DNA from: Phyllosticta citribraziliensis
Taxonomy: Eukaryota
Length of the DNA stretch: 64,000 nucleotides
Direction: 5' to 3'
Assembly: GCF_038025025.1 (NCBI RefSeq)
Contig: NW_027117342.1
Location: 310,001-374,000 of the forward strand
A program made the translations under genes and the position numbers. Below, piece after piece: positions 9,898 through 60,353 of this stretch; the stretch's first letter is position 1; each line of letters starts with the position of its first letter. Below the pieces are notes generated by a model. The model did no database searches. It was not told the origin of the DNA and saw nothing but the letters and a program-made list of their open reading frames with translations.

Positions 9898-11701
9898 ATT
9901 AAACTTTCACGAATTAAAAAGGGGACTAATGAAAAAACGGAGAAGGGGGAGAAAGAAAGAAGGGGAGAAAGAAGAAATTCACCAGGGATACAGTCGCGGC
10001 CAGCACATTCGTATCCTTGGGAGACGAAAGAAGCAGAGGATGTGAGATGGAGATGGAACAATGAGAGGGGCGGGGGGGAGAGGGAAGAAGCAGAGGAGCA
10101 GCAGATCAGAACTAACTGCGGGCGGGCGAGTGAGCAAGCAAGTCAGCGCAAGGCAAAGAGAGAAAAGCAAGAAGGGGAGGGGAGGGAGTGCCGCCGTCGC
10201 TGAAGCTGCTGCGCAACAGTGTGCAAGAGGTGCGCTCTGAAACGGGTCGAGTAAGCCTGGTGCGCTGCAGATGATGAAAGGGCCTGCAAAAAGGGCAGGC
10301 GTCGTTGGTGGAGAGGGAAAAGGCTGCGTCTCGCAGTGCATCAGAAGTGTTCTGTCATGAGCAAGCGTGCGGTCCTGCGTTGACGAAGTGGCCTAGCTTA
10401 AACATGGCCGTAGTGTGGAGAAGCGAAGGCCTCCCCTGCCCCCCGGGTCAAACATGACGATGATGGCAGCCTGGAGCGCGCGCGCGGGATCCGCCTGCTT
10501 TCGTGTGACGATTTGCGAAGCGTCGGCGACAGGGCCAGTGATGGGGGGTGGGTGAGCCATCCTTCGAACGACGTCGTCGACGGTTGCCGTGTTGAGCGGC
10601 TTGGCCGCCCGCGAGCCGCACGCTTAGGCGTTGCACTATCTCTAGACCATTAGCCGTCGCGCCTTATTTTGAGCTGCTCTTCCCAGTACTACCCTTCTTC
10701 GTGCCTCGCTTCCCTAGGCACCCAGCCTTCTCTAACCCTCCTCTAGTGCTCTCGAGCTGCTTCCCTCGGCGGGTGTCGCCTCGAGCCGCGGCTGTAGTCA
10801 TCCCCACGAGGCACCACCGCACTGGCATCTTGCTCAAAACTTTCCGCATTTGGGAACGGGTGAAACTGGAAACCTACAACTACAATTGGTGCGATCGTCT
10901 TTTCGCAGGTATCTCCTTTGACAACGGGGAAAAAAGGAAATCGAACAAACACGTCTGGGGAAGAACCAAGACTTGTTTGAAGAAGAGAAGAGACGAAAGA
11001 AGAAAAAAAAAGAGCTTGGCCCGCCCAGACCATCCCGAGACTCCTGGCTCTGAAAAACGCAACAACTGCCAAAAGCAGCAGCCCCCCCATTAAATCATAC
11101 TATCCTCAGCTGCCCGTCTATCGAGTCGATTCCGAGGCCCCCAACTCCAGACCACAAGACTTTTTGCAAAAAGTCACACATAGGAAAGGGCTCAAAGAGT
11201 GTGGAAAAGGAACCAAAATGGACAAGCGGATCAGCTGCAAAATGCCAACCAAGAAGTGAAGGGTATAACGTGACGCGCTCGAAAGGAGTAAAAGCAAAAG
11301 AAAAAAAGTTTGAAAGGAAAAGATGCCAGAAATGTCACAAGCACGACACTGCCGGCGGAGGTGGGACCGAGTTGGAGATTTGAATCGCCATCGCGTCACG
11401 GTGGTTTCGTGGTTTGCTCCGTGTTCGTTCCAATAGTCAGACGGGATTTCTTCGTCGTTTTCGTTCTTCTTTGCAAGTTTTTTTGGGGTATTTTGCATCT
11501 CGTCTGAGATGTGATTCTGAGACAAGGAAATGGTAGAGAGCGACTCGGGTTAGTCTTTTGGGTTTAGGCCGTGAGCGGCTGCGAAGTGACGGTAGAAACC
11601 ACATGACAAAAGGAAATGTGGGAATGAGCGACATGTCTGACTAATGGTGGCGCGAATCTTTGGCAAAACCATCTCTTACCACCGACTGCACGAGGTGAGA
11701 T

Positions 11702-50088: not shown

Positions 50089-53000
50089 ATGTTGGCTAGC
50101 CGTCTTTCCCACTCCGCCCGTCTTTCTGCGTCCATCTCCAGAAGACTCGCCCTCTTCCAGCCCCAGCCAGCACGTGCTGCGGCCCTGCGCCAGCCTTTTC
50201 GCTTGATGACATCGAGAGCTGCTCAGCCAACACCAAGAGAAGAGCCAGCTACAAAGAGGAGAAGGGTTGACGCCGTCAGCCTTTCTCCACGTGAACACCT
50301 GCACGCTATGGTGGTCCCAATTCCAACAGAGAAAAAAATAGAACTCACAGAAGTCGAGGCAACTCTGCGACGATTGCTCCTCGATGTTGCAGAATACATT
50401 GACAATTCTGCGGCTGCTGCTGAAGATTCTGTCGTCAAAATCCCAGATCAGCTCGCCAAGGAGAAGCTTGTCCTTCGCTTCACAGGAGGATGGGTCCGCG
50501 ACAAGCTGCTCGGTCAGGACAGTAACGACATTGACGTCGCCATTAACAAGATGACGGGCGAAAAATTCGGCCTTCGTCTTAAAGAGTATCTGGAAATTCC
50601 CGGCAATCCCGAAAAGTACGGTTTGGAGGGCGTCTCCAAGTCAGACAAAGCAGGCACTAGCTCGAAAAACAAGCTAGTAGGAGGTCTGCACAAAATCGAG
50701 GCGAATCCAGAAAAGTCGAAGCATCTTGAGACGACCACGACCAAGATTTTGGGACTAGACATTGACCTCGTCAATCTTCGCAAGGAAACGTACACGGACG
50801 ACAGTCGCAATCCCGAGATCGAGTTTGGCACCCCAGAGGAAGACGCTCTCCGGAGAGACGCAACCGTGAATGCCATGTTCTACAACATCAACACCTCGGA
50901 AATCGAAGATTTTACCAACAGGGGATGGGAGGACATGCAACAAAGAATCATCCGTACTCCTCTCGAGCCTTATCAAACTTTCAAGGACGACCCTCTCAGA
51001 GTCTTGCGGTTGATTCGCTTCGCTACTAGACTGGGCTACAGCATCGACTCCGAAGCTGAAAAGTTCATGGGCAACGAGGATATCAAAAAGGCCTTGCACA
51101 TCAAGATCAGCCGTGAGCGTGTGGGTGTAGAACTGGAAAAGATGCTGCGAGGTATGCGCTCTTACGCCAGAACAAATGATTGTACTGACTCAAGATTCAG
51201 GACGGGATCCACTGGGCGCTATCCAGTACATTGACAGGCTAGGTCTCTATGAGACGGTATTCGCAGACCCCACAAAGAACCACGACTACAGACCTCCGTC
51301 CAACTGGGCTGTGGCCTACCAGTGTCTCGCCAGAATCATGCAGTCTGAAGCACCTCACGACCTTGTCCGGACCATGACCATCCATGATGCAGAGGAAGCA
51401 TACACATCGTGGATAATCTCAGCCATAGTCCCTTATGCCGATGCTCCTGAGCCCAAGCCAGTAAAGGCCGGAACCAAGGTCCCTCCCCCAGTCGCAGCAC
51501 AAGTGGTTCGCGAGGCCATCAAGGCGACAAACAAGATTTTCGACGTCATAATTGCTTCCGTCAAGAACCTGGAACACATCACGTCCCTGAAAGACAAGTT
51601 TGCAGTCCAGCAAAGACAGCCGCACAAGAAACAAGAAGGAGAGGATGCTACCGCAAGAGACACCATCGGCATGGCCATCAGGCAATGGGGACAGACTTGG
51701 AGAAGTCAGGCGCTGTTTGCTCTCTTGTACGAGGTCCTGAACAACCCCGACAGGGAGCAAGGTGAGTTAGCCCCCAGCTCTCAAGCAATGCCCGACCTAA
51801 CATTTTCAGAAATCATTGCCTCTTACGGAAATTGGTTCAGTCACATCAAGTCTCAAGACATCACCGAGGCTTACGCCCTCAAGCCTCTCATTGACGGCAA
51901 GACTCTCGCCAAGGCTCTGGAAACGAACCCAGGCCCATGGATGAAAGATGCCCTGGACGTCGTCATGGCATGGCAGTTGCGCAATCCAGACGTCCAAGAC
52001 CCGTCCGAGGCGATCGAGGAAGTCCGCGTCCACCGCAAAAACAACCCCAAGAGCGATGTGGCTGCCAAGGTGTCCAAAAAGAAGGGTGAGCTAACTTCAC
52101 ACCTTGCATCGCACTTCCTACAGCTTACCATCCGCCCGTTGTTTGCAAAGGCACGTAACCCGGAAATCACGGCCCAGGGTCGCAGAGCGATTCAGGCAAG
52201 CCAGCCGCGGACATACCAATCGCTGTCGGTGGTCGAGATGGAAAGCAATCCGTGGAAGAGCGAGAAGAACAAGCATGTACTATCGTTGCTACGCTGGGTA
52301 GTCGCCACCATGGCACCCGAGCGAATCGAACAGTCATGGCCTCTCTTGGTTCCTCCTATCCTCACGCTGCTGGACGACGCTGAGCCCCGGTTCAAGACGA
52401 TTGGCTGCGAACTGCTGTACGGGCTGCTGCACTCGACAACGCCGTCGCTGCTGGCACGCACAGGTCTCGAGCCAGTCTTTCGCAATGCGCTCGAATCTGC
52501 GCTGTCCTACCTGCCTCCCCTCACCCCTGAGCCTGAAAGCACACCCCTGCTCAACGCCGCCTATCCCGCCTTCATCGCCCTGATCAAAGTGACGACGCCA
52601 CAGCCCACAACATCGCCATCTGCATCACCATCCTCAGACTCAAACTCGAGCCCCTCCCCTCTGACTCCTGCCTACGTCGCCCGCGCCAACGCCTTCGCCA
52701 CCCTCCTCTCCTCCCACATCCTCCCCGACCTCGCCCACCAAACCACCATCTCGCCACACGTCGGCACCGCGCGCACCCTGCTCTCCCTCCTCTGCACCCT
52801 CCTGCCGCTCCTCGGCATCCACGCCGTTAAGCACCTCAAAGACCTCGTGCCCCTACTCGCCGCCATCCTGGCAGACCCGCTCGCGCCCGCCGCTCCGCGC
52901 CTGCCGGCCGACGCCGCGCGCGCTGCGCAACAAGTCATACTGACTTCGTGGCCGCGTATGTGGCGGTGGAGAAGCGAGATGCTGAAGGGCGTTGCTGTAG

Positions 53001-53206
53001 CATGGGTGAGATTGGCGGGGGAGACAGAGACTCAATCAGACGAAATGAGTGAGGCGAGGCAGGAGCTGCGAGGATGTGTCGAGCTTCTGTCTACGGTTGT
53101 CGCGGGCGGTGGGGACGAAGAGAAATGGCAATGGGAGGAGGAAGTGGCGCTGTTGGTGAAGAAAGAGGAGAAGTTGAGGTCATTGTTTGAGGGAGTCCGG
53201 GTTTGA
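50089..53206 (+). CDS. CCA1: CCA-adding tRNA nucleotidyltransferase fused in frame to a C-terminal Tti2-like domain
   Basis: Exons 50089-51151, 51201-51761, 51810-53206. GGWVRDKLLG..S.DIDVA, DLVNLRKE, EDALRRDAT.N, DDPLRVLRLIRF, ISRERVG; then without a stop IRPLF..GR..PWK..WPLLVPPILTLLDD..GC..RTGL..YLP.LTP. Confidence 0.92.
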
Positions 53207-54821: not shown

Positions 54822-55915
54822 TCATCCCACCATCTCAACGTCACCACTTCCTCCGTTCTTGCTACTCTCCACGCCGCTGCTGCTATCAGTGCCCGTAGCA
54901 AGTAGCTGTGGAAATTTGAGAGCCGACGTCTCTTTGACGGCTTCGTCCAACACCAGCCGAGTAATGATAGCAGCCTCGACAGCCTTGTCCACCAGCGTCT
55001 CGCCCTTCTCGCCGACATCGCCCTTCATCCACAGCTCAGTGACTTCGTCACGCGCTGGCAGGTAGCCCACCACGCACGCTGCGACCAAATCGCGATGTTC
55101 CGTCGGACTGGGGTCCAGCACGAAGAGCTCCTCCTCTTCTCCTTGCGCATTCTTGCCATCGCCGCGTGGTTGTCGGACAATCGCTGCCACGCCTCCAGCA
55201 ACCATGTCCACACAGTCGATGCCGGCATCAACGATAGCCGCGCTAGCCACGGTGATGCACCCAGCCAGCACGTTCATGAGGCCCCAGCCAGCGCCCAAGC
55301 TGCGGCGGCCGAGGCCAGCGTCCAGTCCCGCTTCGTCGCCTCCCCAGCCGTCCTCCTCGCCTTCCAGCACTGTAATCACAACCTCGACGCCGCTCTTGGG
55401 CCACCGCTCGCCAATGATGATGCCCCGCAGTGCTGCCTCCAGGTGCTGACCCAGGTCGCGCTCTGTGGAGTCGCGCACATAGCCGCGGCGTGCGCGCGTC
55501 GCGAACGGCGCAAACTTCAGCGTCGTCGTCACGTTCAGGTACGGTGTGAAGGGCGAGCTGCGCGGCAGTGGCTTAGGCCCGTGAACGACGCACGATAGCT
55601 TGAGCGAGCCGGCGGGAAAGGCGAGACTGGTGCGGCCCGCGGCGGTGGACGTGGGCGACGAGGGCGTGAGTTCGAGGTAAGCGGAGCCCGAGGCGGAGGG
55701 TGTGAGACCAGTTTTGAGGACTTTGAACGTCAGCTTGTTTGGTTTGAGAGACTGCGTTGGATTGGAATAGACGTACAGATCTTGCGCAGCTCTTCTGGTT
55801 TTCTTGTCCGTACTGGCCGTTGCGGTGCTGAACCAGAGTAGTTGGCGAGCGAAGACGCGAAGATGGGCGCGTATGTGCCGCCAGCTGGGGCATTAGTGCG
55901 ACGGCGATCTGTCAT
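54822..55915 (-). CDS. MTR3: Exosome RNase PH-like subunit Mtr3
   Basis: Exons 55915-55777, 55720-54822. MTDRRRTNAP.GGT, FLKTGLTPSASGSAYLE, VHGPKPL, LKFAPFA, RWPKSGVEV, DAGIDC.D. Confidence 0.9.
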
Positions 55916-56219
55916 TTTGGCTGTGCAGTTCTCAAGAAAAGACTGGGCTGAGGTACGCGGAGCATGGCAGATCCAAAGTTGAATGCCGCGAGCTTTGCCC
56001 TGGTGTTTTCGGGCCGGGCGCCGGCGGTCGATGACGGAAGAGCCCGCGGGCCGGCCTGTTGCCGTCCGCTTGGCGCTCGGCGCGCTAGAAATTTTGGCGA
56101 GGCGAGGCATCAAAACTTCCATCGTCGCCCTTCCCTTCCATCTTCATCACACACACGACATTCGCCACTTTCGCCCTCGGTAAGCCGCCATTTCTTCTCA
56201 TTCTACTCATCTCTACTTC

Positions 56220-56296
56220 ACGGGAGGATACCCATCACAGAAAGTTCCGGCGACATCTACATGAGCCCTTGAACAACATGCACTACCATCTGATGT
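56220..56296 (+). ncRNA. snR55: Box C/D snoRNA, snR55-like (18S helix 34 region)
   Basis: Guide CATGCACTACCA followed by T and box D CTGA (56290-56293), complementary with one G-U to 18S UGGUGGUGCAUG. Box C is degenerate (GGGAGGA ~56222). Intronic. Confidence 0.75.
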
Positions 56297-56728
56297 TCAT
56301 CTCAATCCAATCATTTGCAGCACTTCGGCCACGAACATCGCGCTGACTGCATGAACAGGATCTCCGAGATGCGTAGATGTAGACTTACCGGCCCTGTCGC
56401 ACGCGACGCATCGTCTCGACCTTGACGCTACAACGATTCTAATGCCGATGGCTTGTTTGCGTGGCAAGTGTCGGACGACCTTCACAATGTGAGGGAGGCT
56501 GAGAGACACCGGCCACGTTGGGCGCGACAACTGCCAATCTGGAAAGTCGTGCAGCGGAGGTCTCGCCAGCGATGACAGTGTTGTCTCATGCGAGGTCTCC
56601 GCTGCACAACCCAGTCCCTGGCTTTCGTTCCAGGATGCGACCGCTACGGCCAAAGCTTGATTGATCCTACAGAGACACTCGTCCTGTCAGGTGCTAACGT
56701 AAGTCGCCATCATTTTCTTCCAACAACT

Positions 56729-56807
56729 CCTATGATGATCGGTATAATTTCAGTTCTGCTACTGAATTTCATGTGGAAAACTCAACCAAGCTTACCATAT
56801 CTGATAT
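56729..56807 (+). ncRNA. snR61: Box C/D snoRNA, snR61-like (25S AAGCAGAACUGG region)
   Basis: Box C ATGATGA 56732-56738; guide TTCAGTTCTGCT before D' CTGA 56762-56765; C' TGTGGA; box D CTGA 56801-56804. Intronic. Confidence 0.85.
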
Positions 56808-56963
56808 GGAGTTACCCCTCTCTGCTTCACATGCTCAACGTTGGAAAGCATCTGGCTGACATGTTTTGCCTCAGATTCTAGATTTTCATACCCTGCTCTG
56901 ACAATCCACTGCTCCCAGCTCTACTCACTGGTAAGTCGCTGCCTGCCCCTCTACCCTCCACTC

Positions 56964-57198
56964 TGCAAGGATGAATCCTAGTCTATCCATTCAACGAGCA
57001 TTCCTTCCGGTCCACCCTCCCGCACTGGACCATCTTTCACGAGATGGGAGGATGGTTGTGGAGTTGCCAGCGAGCCTCTTCGGGGGCGAGCAAGCGTAAT
57101 GCTGGGCTTCGAGCTGCAGGCCGCGCAGGACCGTTATGGCGCCTGCGAGGACCTGTGGCCGGCGGGTACGCATGACTATACCGGCTATTCTGATTGCA
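56964..57198 (+). ncRNA. Long (~235 nt) structured box C/D RNA, target unidentified
   Basis: Box C AGGATGA 56968-56974; box D CTGA 57190-57193; closing stem TGCAA/TTGCA; internal hairpins including C(TTCG)G; lies inside intron 56931-57288. Confidence 0.65.
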
Positions 57199-57993
57199 CT
57201 CATGCACTCTGTTCCGCATGAAGAACGCGTCCATCGATCCCTCCGCTGCGTGTCTAGGTCGAAGCACGTGGGCTAACGAATCTCAAAGCACTTCTAGATC
57301 ATCAGACGTTGATTGGACTTACCTATGCTGTCCCGGCGGCACCGGGAGAACCGTACTACTGAACTAGTGCCCGCGGTTCGTGCTTAGTGGGCTTATGTTT
57401 ACGTTTCCCCTTTTTCCCAGATTGCTGGAAAACTGGCGGCGCCCCGCCCCGCGCCCGCGCTACTCCCGCTGATGCGAACCCCACCGCTGACGTGTGCGGG
57501 TTCCTCGACAGTTGGTCGAAGGATCCGACTCGTCATCTCTGCAGAGCCCCACGCTTGGGGATCCGATCCCTGTTCTGCGGCCAGGCGTCCCCGGCTTATG
57601 GCGCCGAGCGTGTTGACGATGCACGAGGGCAGTAACACGGCCTGCACACGTAGATGATGGAGTAGATTGATATGTACATTGAACACAACTTCTTCGCCCC
57701 TCGTGGTGAACTTGCCCATCAACCGTCTGAAGCAAGGAAGAAAGTGACGTTTGCTAGATCCAAATTTTGCTTCCCGACTCCCTCACCTACTTCCATGCTG
57801 TTGAGCTGTAAAGGTAAAATGCACAATGGGAAAAAGAACATGCCGCTGGATGAAAGAAACAAAAACATCAGCCACACCCCCTTCGAGCGTTCCATCGTCT
57901 AGTTAGCCCCCCCGTAACCTCGGGCATCCTCCTCGCTCCTCGAAATTACCCACCACCCTTCATTACCGCGTCCCTAGCCGCTACATGTCCGCC

Positions 57994-60353
57994 CTACCTC
58001 CTCTCCGGGGTCTTGGGCGGCTCCTCCTGCTCCACGGGCTGATACATGACGGCGGTGCCGGCACTAGCCATGCTGCTAGCGCGGGACCCAGCGCCGGGCC
58101 TCAGCGGGGCAGGGACATCGACGCCCTCCTCCTCGACATCCGCATCCGTCGCCTCCATCAGCGCGCTCGTCTGCTGCGCGTGCAGGCTCAGCTCCGGCTC
58201 CTCGTCGAGCGGCCACGTGTTGCCGTCGGGGCTGCCGCCGACCAGCGCGGCCGCCGGCCCCCGCGAGAAGCGGTGGGAGCTGGACAGCCGGCTCGCGAAG
58301 CCGGATCCGCTCAGCGTCTCGGCGGAGTGCGAGCGCGGCCGCGAGTTGCCTCCTGGCCGGACGGCCGCGGACGGGCTGCCGCTGCCGTGTTGGGGCGACG
58401 AGGCGTTGGCGGACTGGCTGGACGTCGGGCGCGCGTCAGCCTGCTGCGCGAGGGCGCGCTGCGGGTTGTAGAAGGGCTGCATGGGGCCGTCGAGCAGGCT
58501 GTTGGCCTCGACGCCGACGTTGGTCGCGTAGGGGTCGAGGTAGCGCGAGAAGCCGCTGGAGCGGCTCTGGCGATCGGGGGAGGCCGGGCGGCCCGTCATG
58601 CCCGACTGCGTCGAGATGCGGCGCTCCATGCGCGACAGGCGGTTGTCCAGCAGGCGCATGGTTTCGTACTCGGAGGCGCGGCGCGAGTGGCGCGTGTCAA
58701 AGTCCTCGAGGCGCGACAGGCGCGCGTCGATGCGGTCGAGCGTGTCGAGCGACGCGTGGCGGTTGTGGCTGCCGGCGGCGCCGTCCTTGCTGTCCTTGCC
58801 AGAGCTGTTGGCCGCGGCGCCGCCGTCCAGATGCGACAGGCGGCGCTCGATGCGGACGAGAAGGTCGTCGGCGGCGTTGTTGTGGCGCGGGTTCTCCTCG
58901 AGGCTTGTGAGACGGCGGTCCAGCGAGACGAGCAGCTCCACCACCTTGTCGAGCTTGTCCGCCGACGAGAGCTGTGACAGCGTGGAGCCAGCGGATTGGC
59001 TGGTGAACGGAATCTTGGGGACGGGCGGGATGCTCTCCTTCTCCTTGTCCTTCTCCGACTTGGAAAAGGCCGGCTTGGGCGACTCGGGCAACAGTAGGTG
59101 GTCTTTGGACAGCGCGGCAGTGGTACCCGAGATGGCGCTCTGCGGCTCGGCCTCCAGATCGAAACGGTGGCGCTTGAAGTCGGTCTTGAGCTTGAGCGGC
59201 TCGTCGTCGAACGTCTCTTCCTCGGTGTAGACGCCATTGTTGAGACCCGAGGCCTGGGCGGCGGCGCGCTCGCGCATGCTGTAGCCGCTGTCGTACTTCC
59301 TGGCGTGCTTGTCGTCCAAGTTGGACACGGGGGCGTAGCTGCCGGGTCCACTGGCTCCGTCGGGGATGTAGAAGCGGAGGTCAATGCGGAGGATGATGTA
59401 CAGGTAGACGACCATAATCTCAACGGTAAAGTTGAAAATATAAAAGCACGCCTTGGAGTAGTAGGTAGGCAGAGGCTGACGAACAGACACGGGATCCTTC
59501 CATGCCGTGCCGCAGCGGTAGCACGCTCCGAGACACAGTAAGAAAGAAGCCAGCAAAAGGATCGTCACCTTTGTGCGGAAGCGACCAGAGCCAAACTTCT
59601 CAAGGCGCGTCTTGCGGGGAGCGAGGATGCCGATAATGGTGATGGGTATCGGCAGGAACGAGACAAACGAAAAGTAGGTCGCCGTGTAGAGCTGAATGTC
59701 ACGGTCGATCCGGTGCGTGTTCGTATTTTTCGTGTAAAAGGACTGCACGGTGACGGTGATGACCATGATCAAAGAGCAGACAATGATGAAGTAGTTAACC
59801 TTGAACAAGGCCGAAAAGGGCTTCGACCAGCCGAGCTTGGGGTGCCGGGCGCGGATCAGTCTCTGGGTGAAGAGCAGGTTGATGATGAAGATCAAGAGCA
59901 CACCAGCAGCCACGAAAATCTGGGCTGCGATACCAAGCTTGATGTTCTTGGGCTGCGTGGCCCACGAGATCCGGAGTATACAAGTCAGCACCCTACACAT
60001 GCAGAACGCTATGCATCGTGTTAGCTTGTTGTGAATGAGCCCGTGGTCAGGTCTGCTCACCAAACAGCATAATGGACATGAGGAATTTGTGATTCCTCTT
60101 GCGGTTCTTTTGGAAAATGGCCATGTGCCCAACGGCACCCAGCAGGAAGAGGAAGAGAAAGACGGATGTGACGGGAATGTCCGTCCCTTCGTCGACTCTT
60201 CCGCCCAATTGCCATGTTGTTGGCGCATACGGCGGTCCGGTGGGAGGGCCTCCCTGTTGCTGTTAGAACAACATTTCTGAGAATCGACAAAAGACTTACT
60301 TGGCCACCCTGGCCCTGGCCACCTTGGCCTTGGCCTTGTTGTTGAGATGACAT
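57994..60353 (-). CDS. DUF3112-like fungal multi-pass membrane protein with long C-terminal tail
   Basis: Exons 60353-60300, 60253-60061, 60008-57994. GPPY.P....LGG....DIP...VFL.LF..GA..HM..NHKF, RISWA..P.N..IAAQIFVAAGV, EKFG.GRFRTK, FYIFNFTVE, RIDLRFYIPDG. Confidence 0.85.

Follow-up and report, generated by a model that had tools for sequence, protein, structure and literature searches.

The stretch of Phyllosticta citribraziliensis DNA that we analyzed (64,000 nucleotides, hereafter the window) carries, at positions 56964 to 57198 of the forward strand, a genuine non-canonical box C/D snoRNA that is long, structured, and intron encoded, and that is a real gene, not a chance arrangement of motifs. 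It extends an orphan family already on record rather than founding a new class of RNA, and it is most likely the orthologue of Nc CD53/CD_53. Two of its conserved blocks have candidate contacts in domain V of 25S rRNA, and we tentatively propose that the RNA may bind both.

The RNA has boxes C and D, a terminal stem, internal D′ and C′ boxes, and a guide spacer 5′ of D′ (Table 1). An initial annotation had marked the two boxes, the TGCAA/TTGCA stem, and three hairpins, and all of them lie where it put them. Box C of the window departs from the consensus RUGAUGA at its second letter; among the aligned members, UGAUGA is found in 7/15, GAUGA in 12/15, and GGAGGA in 3/15, and all 15 members end the box with GA. 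The GA of box D′ (form NNGA) is also invariant (15/15), and D′ keeps a fixed distance to the guide-like block E1, whose invariant letters in alignment A1 are A25 G26 and A30-C37. On the D side, the distance from the GGC of block E5 to CUGA ranges from 2 to 4 nt among members. A second C′-like motif lies 14 to 15 nt 5′ of box D in 10/10 full-length members, so that the RNA has two candidate C′ boxes (57047-57052 and 57171-57175). Blocks E6 and E7, whose pairing was judged by eye, are proposed to form a long-range helix. In relatives, a T>C change at 57195 weakens the terminal stem, and terminal stems appear weak or variable by eye among the homologues.

Table 1. Features of the long snoRNA and its host gene, in window coordinates
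Feature	Positions	Strand	Basis or remark
Box C/D snoRNA of ~235 nt, including terminal stem	56964..57198	+	boxes, stem, homologues; mature ends predicted
Terminal stem, 5′ arm TGCAA	56964..56968	+	5 bp with TTGCA 57194-57198
Box C, AGGAUGA	56968..56974	+	alignment A1
E1, guide-like block AGUCUAUCCAUUCA between box C and D′	56980..56993	+	alignment A1
Box D′, ACGA	56994..56997	+	CUGA, AUGA, or CCGA in other members
E2, C-rich block GUCCACCCUCCCGCAC	57010..57025	+	conserved in 14/14 members reaching E2
Hairpin Hb, CCATCT/AGATGG	57030..57047	+	directly 5′ of internal C′-like box
Internal C′-like box, GGAGGA	57047..57052	+	alignment A1; GAUGA in most members
E3, conserved block GGUUGUGGAGUUGC	57054..57067	+	8 + 4 bp with 25S GCGAAACCACAGCC
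Hairpin Hc, GCCUC-UUCG-GGGGC	57074..57087	+	
E6, conserved block, putative 5′ side of E6:E7 helix	57096..57113	+	alignment A1
Hairpin He, CGCAGG..CCTGCG	57123..57147	+	pentaloop, C-G closing pair
E7, conserved GGCCGGCGGG, putative 3′ side of E6:E7 helix	57157..57166	+	alignment A1
Second C′-like motif, CAUGA	57171..57175	+	N-UGA or AGGA in members; by eye
E5, D-adjacent block CUAUACCGGCUAUU	57176..57189	+	consensus UUAAC-N-(C/U)GGCU across homologues
Box D, CUGA	57190..57193	+	10/10 full-length members
Third intron, non-coding snoRNA host gene	56931..57288	+	X3 contig: 358 bases skipped, GT..AG
snR61 homologue, second intron	56727..56807	+	Rfam RF00476, 52.4 bits against cut-off 45
snR55-like snoRNA, first intron	56218..56295	+	Rfam RF00472, 33.6 bits, under cut-off 50

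The snoRNA sits in a GT..AG intron of 358 nt whose bounds fit the splice joint 56929|57288 of a close relative, represented by one 495-nt spliced contig from run X3 that also omits the introns of the snR55-like RNA and snR61. This agrees with the earlier placement of the RNA in the third intron of a snoRNA host gene. The intron is better conserved than the exons, since the window and the X3 relative show 11 differences over 364 nt of intron compared with 25 differences and 9 gaps in exon 56361-56675. In addition, RNA contigs of relatives lie over the snoRNA in three runs (X7, 56956-57244; X4, 56978-57225; X3, 56947-57310), and these contigs attest coverage of the region while revealing neither RNA ends nor levels. 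Only the covered parts of the runs were taken as evidence. As in the budding-yeast snR57-snR55-snR61 cluster, snR55 and snR61 share one transcription unit; unlike in that cluster, the long RNA lies 3′ of snR61, and snR57 is absent from the window and from the long-RNA loci scanned with Rfam. The initial annotation had likewise seen no snR57-type guide. In L058 and L052, two loci of Saccharomycotina type, the order is snR57-snR55-snR61. The host gene is flanked by a minus-strand open reading frame (54822-55532) with an RNase_PH domain; this is compatible with the MTR3 neighbor named by the initial annotation, an identity that the domain does not prove.

We looked for homologues in 117 metagenome loci retrieved by an snR61 pattern and found the long RNA in 14 independent ones, 155 to 255 nt 3′ of the snR61 guide, with an RNase_PH neighbor (amino-acid identity, 57 to 69%) in 6 of the 14. 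These distant syntenic loci show 72 to 78% identity across the 5′ 100 nt. Conservation across the homologues extends to box C, the GA of D′, box D, and the 13-nt guide-like block that follows box C; the span from box C to box D is about 205 to 235 nt in 8/9 full-length homologues (~140 nt in the remaining one, L027).

Folded as a single sequence, the RNA shows no exceptional stability (z = -0.83; 40/200 shuffles do as well), and the structural evidence is thus comparative rather than thermodynamic. Hairpin He covaries strongly: in alignment A2 (9 sequences), 79% of its cells are paired compared with 60.6% in shuffles (0/500 as high) and 30 to 48% in slid controls, and both sides change in 7/9 pairs. 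Its pentaloop is conserved as well, reading GUUAU at 57133-57137 and GUCUU in other members. By eye, the place of Hb is taken by a hairpin of differing sequence in most of the 14 folded members, and that of Hc by hairpins of differing sequence in several. The syntenic homologues, the conserved boxes and guide-like block, the covariation of He, and the RNA contigs of relatives together indicate that the snoRNA is a real gene.

A strong match to a known Rfam guide was the check that the initial annotation had set for novelty. Under both gathering and permissive cut-offs, no Rfam family matched over the RNA in the window (E up to 10) or at 12 homologous loci (E up to 5), and the models for snR4, snR45, U13, snR57, snR190, and U14 stayed unmatched in a library that we assume to include each. 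The description of the RNA as non-canonical stands, but the alternative term uncharacterised does not, as Nc CD53/CD_53 had been described (PMC2780460, PMC5824354). Nc CD53 is a 212-nt orphan C/D snoRNA of Neurospora crassa, cDNA-cloned and northern-verified, and it is reported on chromosome IV, like CD34 (snR55) and CD38 (snR61) (Liu et al. 2009, PMC2780460). The snoStrip survey traced CD_53 in several Pezizomycotina and described it as “the only exception,” with lengths of 200 to 300 nt that no other fungal C/D family shows (Canzler et al. 2018, PMC5824354). Its best predicted target there was 25S-3500, which corresponds in the alignment to the snR86 site, and the authors called this prediction ambiguous (ICI 0.71, mfe -11.56, “no unambiguous targets”; PMC5824354).

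The published accounts of Nc CD53/CD_53 resemble our RNA in several respects. All concern a C/D RNA far over the normal length (212 nt in N. crassa, 200 to 300 nt in the family, and ~235 nt here, which lies inside the family range) that is an orphan of filamentous ascomycetes, and the N. crassa RNA shares its chromosome with the snR55 and snR61 homologues. Furthermore, snoStrip’s best target, a weak one, is the snR86 position of 25S, at which our own candidate site may also lie. The accounts differ in that Nc CD53 was listed as intergenic (PMC2780460), whereas the RNA here is intronic in the snR55-snR61 host gene; moreover, three features seen here, namely the additional contact of E3 with 25S, the covariation of the pentaloop hairpin, and the synteny, do not figure in the passages on CD_53 that we consulted. 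Among the other sources, the SnoBIRD supplement is without N. crassa sequences (the “CD53” matches in it are CD_531 of Schizosaccharomyces pombe), and the C/D RNAs in the accessible part of the Aspergillus fumigatus snoRNA survey include no obvious counterpart. The long snoRNA is most likely the orthologue of Nc CD53/CD_53, an identity inferred from description (length, orphan status, and location).

For target prediction, the rRNA reference was one fungal LSU (L150, with a group I intron), and the genome that yielded it holds no copy of the long-RNA family. A 25S motif scan of viral contigs for further fungal rDNA gave 0 matches. The pairing method recovered the known targets of snR55 and snR61, with 13 bp between the snR55-like guide and 18S (1264-1276 of the reference) and 11 bp between the snR61 D′ guide and 25S. 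With this method, E1 was found to pair over 8 to 10 bp with 25S UGAAUGGAU(U) (2736-2745 of L150), directly before D′, in 15/15 members; in the window, the duplex has 9 bp, and the invariant AG of AGUC stays unpaired. Considered alone, E1 places this site 27th of 1775 windows; in the single-element shuffle comparison, the complementarity of E1 is -15.7 compared with -12.6 (sd 1.3) for shuffles. The best site of E3, which lies ~35 nt downstream in 25S, ranks first of 1775 windows and is the best in all rRNA (energy, -17.5 compared with -15.2, sd 1.2, for shuffles). Variants of E3 in L114 and L115 convert a G.U pair to G-C, and in L010 and L066 the pairing is weaker at the helix ends. All 5 independent eukaryotic rDNA contigs that extend to the E3 target carry an identical segment there, and 4 of these 5 do so for the E1 segment.

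Taken as a pair, E1 and E3 had the best co-located sites across 18S, 5.8S, and 25S (-30.6 kcal/mol), and none of 56 double column-shuffles was as good (mean, -25.3; sd, 2.0), in a test that used 6/15 members and one rRNA reference and was devised after both sites had been seen. The initial annotation had stated that the D-adjacent sequence matches no recognizable rRNA site, and this essentially holds for E5, for which 2/14 shuffles were as good, but is too strong for the box C side, where the match of E1 to 25S lies in methylation register with D′. Measured against an antisense length of at least ~10 bp, the D′ side offers 8 to 10 bp, and the D side offers 7 to 11 bp to GAAGCCGGU in variable register. 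This last segment was the best rRNA site for E5 as a D guide, and we rejected it on account of the shuffles and the variable register.

These pairings suggest how the RNA might work. After release of the snoRNA from the third intron of the host gene, a non-coding gene that also carries snR55 and snR61, the snoRNP would bind two universally conserved segments in domain V of 25S. The D′ guide (AUCCAUUCA) would pair with 5′-UGAAUGGAU-3′, and because the fifth nucleotide before D′ lies opposite the U of GAAU*GG, it could direct 2′-O-methylation there. This uridine is presumably the snR86 position (by yeast numbering), and no methylation at it is known in these fungi. The block directly 3′ of the internal C′ box (GGUUGUGG..UUGC) would add pairing with 5′-GCGA..CCACAGCC-3′, ~35 nt downstream, and both pairings together would clamp the 25S stretch, as a helper or chaperone would; the hairpins Hb, Hc, and He and the C-rich block, which make up the long structured insert, would serve as a scaffold specific to the lineage. 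U8 and snR190 are chaperones of rRNA folding, snR190 being of the C/D type, and some methylation guides are aided by extra base-pairing. The RNA here resembles such guides and snR190 in combining a D′-register guide with a second nearby rRNA complementarity, and it differs from them in its short duplex, its conserved structured insert, and a length two to three times greater. That an intronic C/D snoRNA orthologous to CD_53 binds these two segments of domain V is the joint explanation that we advance tentatively, as possible. A fuller version, in which CD_53-type RNAs are a filamentous-ascomycete “clamp” that methylates the uridine and chaperones the domain V fold while the C-rich block and the pentaloop recruit partners, is speculative, and we consider it unlikely.

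Several observations would fit a real CD_53-type snoRNA that acts on snRNA, tRNA, snoRNA, mRNA, or protein partners, its rRNA matches being due to chance. The complementarities of single elements are only marginally better than shuffles for E1 and E3 and no better for E5, no contiguous rRNA complement to the full 13-nt invariant E1 was found, and neither E2 nor the conserved He pentaloop found an rRNA partner. (The strong energies of E2 with a G-rich 25S stretch near 160-190 were set aside as composition driven and in a variable region, and no target of E2 was found in the conserved rRNA core.) Moreover, the family is still an orphan in the literature we cite (PMC2780460, PMC5824354), and snRNA and tRNA targets have been predicted for some N. 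crassa snoRNAs (Table 1 of PMC2780460). The co-location of E1 and E3 on 25S, better than in 56/56 shuffles, argues against chance rRNA matches, and we judge this reading credible but somewhat unlikely.

It is improbable, in our estimation, that E1 acts as guide or chaperone elsewhere in 25S, either at the expansion segment 2593-2618 of the reference or at a 9-bp site at 1305. Of all sites in the reference rRNA, the segment at 2593-2618 forms the energetically strongest duplex with E1 (median, -18.7; worst of 15 members, -17.0), with 18 bp and two bulges, and 0/14 shuffles reached the E1 optimum. Against it, the bulges interrupt the continuous helix required for methylation, and the site belongs to a variable expansion segment known from a single reference (L120, the sole other contig reaching the stretch, differs), whereas E1 is invariant across distant members. 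In addition, no second element co-locates there, and the co-location test chose the domain V site instead.

An acetylation guide is built from two imperfect antisense blocks that flank the cytidine acetylated by Kre33/NAT10. The initial annotation had hinted at a likeness to such guides, and the RNA could in principle be the filamentous-fungal counterpart of snR4 (18S helix 34) or snR45/U13 (helix 45), a reading that we hold to be very improbable. The resemblance lies in a long, orphan-looking RNA with degenerate D′/C′ boxes and a variable helical body that, like snR4 and snR45/U13 (SNORD13), is not known to methylate (PMC5464676, PMC9226516). Moreover, the helix-45 guide is unassigned in these fungi, as snoStrip reported snR45 only in Saccharomycetaceae (PMC5824354), and helix 34 came 14th among 2632 positions (z -2.95) when all rRNA was scanned with E1 and E2 joined into a two-part guide. 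Yet the first guide block (GS1) of snR4/snR45 lies before box C (PMC5464676), whereas here box C adjoins the terminal stem and precedes the conserved block, and the yeast and human RNAs are transcribed independently, whereas ours is intronic. A shuffle test at the two ac4C sites (18S C1280 and C1773) covered 42 ordered pairs of elements; its lowest uncorrected p was 0.04, and E1 with E2 at helix 34 fell outside the 12 best pairs, whose p reached 0.22. For E2 combined with the He loop, the neighborhood of helix 45 came about 1100th of 2617 positions in a sliding scan that excluded position 1773, which was covered by the 42-pair shuffle test. Two-part pairings of the U13-like (helix 45) and snR4-like (helix 34) kinds, being not above shuffles, were rejected. 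Rfam gave no match whatever on the long snoRNA, and in snoStrip, snR4 is a separate family in several Pezizomycotina (PMC5824354). The guide-like block after box C and a complementarity to the ac4C sites no better than that of shuffled elements thus leave the acetylation analogy unsupported.

That there is no functional RNA, and that the boxes and stem arose by chance in an intron whose conservation stops at close relatives, is scarcely credible: the unremarkable fold, the off-consensus box C, and terminal stems that look weak in several members would suit it, but the syntenic conservation in 14 distant loci, the better conservation of the intron than of the exons, the covariation of He, and the RNA contigs of three runs all speak against it.

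Long orphan box C/D snoRNAs have repeatedly proved to have non-routine roles, such as guiding acetylation and assisting rRNA folding. The CD_53 family, still without a function 17 years after its first cloning, keeps its place in a single syntenic intron in distantly related filamentous fungi, many of which are associated with plants. Our analysis places this family in the snR55-snR61 host gene and, on the strength of predicted pairing, would narrow its orphan status to two named 25S segments as candidate contacts.

The RNA encoded in the third intron of the snoRNA host gene is real and conserved, and its expression is established at least for the intron that contains it. The window DNA is fungal and GC-rich, and the host gene is non-coding. 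The initial annotation had described a structured C/D RNA in this intron, and we confirmed it: box C (AGGATGA), box D (CTGA), the TGCAA/TTGCA terminal stem and all three hairpins were found in the sequence, and comparison with Rfam returned no family match in the intron at E values up to 10. The single-sequence fold of the long RNA was no more stable than shuffles (z = -0.83), so thermodynamics alone was uninformative.

Features of the host gene, its neighbors and the long RNA (window positions)
Feature	Position	Strand	Remark
Tti2 ORF	51176-53206	+	Pfam
RNase_PH ORF	54822-55532	-	Pfam; divergent to host gene
snoRNA host gene	~56100 to 57350	+	non-coding
snR55-like RNA	56218-56295	+	Rfam 33.6 bits, permissive threshold, under cut-off of 50
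snR61	56727-56807	+	Rfam 52.4 bits, cut-off 45
Third intron	56931-57288
Long RNA	56964-57198		~235 nt
Box C	56968-56974
E1	56980-56993		conserved block
D'	56994-56997
E2	57010-57025		conserved block, C-rich
Hb	57030-57047		hairpin
First C'-like box	57047-57052
E3	57054-57067		conserved block
Hc	57074-57087		hairpin
E6	57096-57113		conserved block
He	57123-57147		hairpin
He pentaloop	57133-57137
E7	57157-57166		conserved block
E5	57176-57189		conserved block, D-adjacent
Box D	57190-57193
DUF3112 ORF	57994-60228	-	Pfam

Splicing and coverage were assessed with contigs from four of the 14 public sequencing runs found. A contig of 495 nt from a close relative (run X3, depth 200) joins 56181 to 56361, 56675 to 56877 and 56929 to 57288; the last joint leaves out 358 bases with GT..AG ends and coincides exactly with the intron bounds first proposed. 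At the joint 56675|56877, across the second intron, which carries snR61, the two sides are separated in the contig by 21 other letters, which reflects either a difference in exon structure between the fungi or the assembly of an alternative splice form. The intronic RNA is covered by a separate X3 contig (56947-57310, 11 differences), by a contig of run X7 (56956-57244, 19 differences, depth 133.8) and by one of run X4 (56978-57225, 6 differences), whose library is recorded as RNA-seq of a plant metagenome. When the window is set against the X3 relative, the exon at 56361-56675 has 25 differences plus 9 gaps, and the intron contig 11 differences. The intron is thus better conserved than the exons, which, on these alignments, is the pattern expected of a snoRNA host gene. 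That the long RNA accumulates as a stable ~235-nt species is an inference, as the contigs give neither ends nor abundance.

Using the snR61 guide as bait, we obtained 117 loci from metagenome contigs; for 80, flanks of 1.5 kb were included. When the loci were searched with a 5'-domain profile, 14 of the 117 had the long RNA (nine copies full length, five cut off by the locus end), and the profile gave no other hit. It always lies in the intron that follows snR61, 155 to 255 nt downstream of the guide. A divergent RNase_PH gene, arranged as in the window, was also present in six of these loci, at 57 to 69% amino acid identity; these are orthologous loci of well-diverged fungi. Loci of the Saccharomycotina type have the order snR57-snR55-snR61 without the long RNA, whereas in window-type loci the long RNA follows snR61. 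In a short family member (L027:1198-1360, minus strand), which spans ~140 nt between boxes C and D, most of the structured insert is missing, but the D-adjacent block, E1, D' and a C' box are all there; this member may represent an ancestral, shorter form of the family.

In the alignment of 15 members including the window, the final GA of box C was kept in 15/15, and box D was CUGA in 10/10 full-length members. E1 (AGUCUAUCCAUUC) is almost invariant and lies 4 to 5 nt after box C; a fixed 3 nt past it stands an invariant GA, so that D' has the form NNGA (CUGA in locus L066). There follow E2, the variable-sequence hairpin Hb, a GAUGA-like C' box, E3 (GGUUGUGGAGUUG), the variable hairpin Hc, and He flanked by E6 and E7; after E7 come a second C'-like N-UGA motif, the 14- to 15-nt E5 and box D. 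Hb, Hc and the E6:E7 helix were assessed by eye alone, and E6 and E7 appear to pair with each other. He, in an alignment of nine sequences, paired in 79% of cells versus 60.6% in shuffles (0/500 as high) and in only 30 to 48% when registers were slid, and both sides changed in 7/9 pairs. The boxes are conserved and He covaries at syntenic introns. The He pentaloop (columns 11 to 15 of the nine-sequence alignment) reads GUUAU in 4/9, GUCUU in 4/9 and UUCUU in 1/9; its C-G closing pair is invariant and the stem beneath covaries freely, features that point to recognition by a protein or to a tertiary contact. The E2 block (GCCACCCUCCCGCAC type; columns 66 to 90 of the 15-member alignment) is among the best-conserved parts of the RNA, and no partner for it in the conserved rRNA core or within the long RNA survived controls.

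Targets were sought in a single fungal-type rDNA unit from another organism (L150); as a control, the snR55 and snR61 guides of the window were run on it and paired where expected, over 13 and 11 bp, respectively. This complete unit (L150:6231-12316; also L152) is part of a 24-kb contig whose assembly bears the label Bryobacteraceae bacterium, and is apparently a eukaryotic contaminant of a MAG; Rfam found a 1800-nt 18S, a 5.8S and an LSU interrupted by a group I intron (10857-11199), and the 5.8S differs from other fungal-looking 5.8S starts observed. The two guides of snR61 aim at overlapping stretches of one 25S region (L150 1127-1142): the D' guide forms 11 bp with 1132-1142, and 8 bp form between the D-side sequence GCUUACCA and 1127-1134.

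No block of the long RNA had a long contiguous rRNA complement in L150. In 15/15 members, E1 forms 8 to 10 bp with 25S UGAAUGGAU(U) in the stretch immediately preceding D', which sets the U of GAAU*GG opposite the fifth nucleotide upstream of D'. By yeast numbering, this U would be the snR86 site named by snoStrip. E3 pairs (8 + 4 bp) with 25S GCGA-AA-CCACAGCC, ~35 nt downstream of the E1 site; of all rRNA windows this one ranks first for E3 (1/1775), and in loci L114 and L115 a G.U pair of the helix is replaced by G-C through changes in E3. On its own, each of E1 and E3 was only slightly above column-shuffled controls (0/14 shuffles each), and E5 was no better than shuffles (2/14 as good), in keeping with the earlier remark that the D-adjacent sequence matches no rRNA site. 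When E1 and E3 were required to pair close together, no place in the rRNAs did better than these two 25S sites (-30.6 kcal/mol, versus -25.3 [sd 2.0] for double shuffles, 0/56 as good), in a test on six members designed after the sites had been noticed. The energetic optimum of E1 was an expansion-segment site of L150; because that stretch is variable, the match was regarded as probably specific to L150. Among independent eukaryotic rDNA contigs reaching the sites, the E3 segment was identical in 5/5 and the E1 segment in 4/5, so the pairing should carry over to P. citribraziliensis.

The proposed analogy with snR4 and snR45, by which the long RNA would guide 18S acetylation, fared poorly, and we consider it highly improbable: in those guides box C is preceded by one antisense block, and a second lies in a loop after C' (PMC5464676, section 8), whereas the long RNA begins at the stem beside box C. 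A two-part E1+E2 scan put helix 34 at rank 14/2632, but this was unremarkable against shuffled elements; helix 45 ranked about 1100/2617, and among 42 ordered pairs of elements tried at the two ac4C sites the lowest uncorrected P value against shuffled elements was 0.04.

The N. crassa snoRNA survey (PMC2780460) lists CD34 and CD38, homologues of snR55 and snR61, as intronic on chromosome IV, together with CD53, a 212-nt orphan C/D RNA from the same chromosome detected by cDNA and northern blot; CD53 is classed there as intergenic, whereas the long RNA is intronic. In "The fungal snoRNAome" (PMC5824354), the family CD_53, with members of 200 to 300 nt, is called "the only exception" to the usual C/D length range and occurs loosely in several Pezizomycotina; its best target, an admittedly ambiguous prediction, is alignment position 25S-3500, also given to the snR86 pseudouridine. 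Because length, lineage, chromosome, orphan status and predicted target all fit, the long RNA very probably corresponds to CD53/CD_53, a match by description, not by sequence. The Neurospora snoRNA literature found, in its available parts, gives no function for CD53. The long RNA very probably adds a further member to an orphan family already described, and is no unknown kind of RNA. With modest confidence, its most likely action is on 25S domain V, which its D' guide and accessory block would bind, and where the snoRNP may methylate one uridine.
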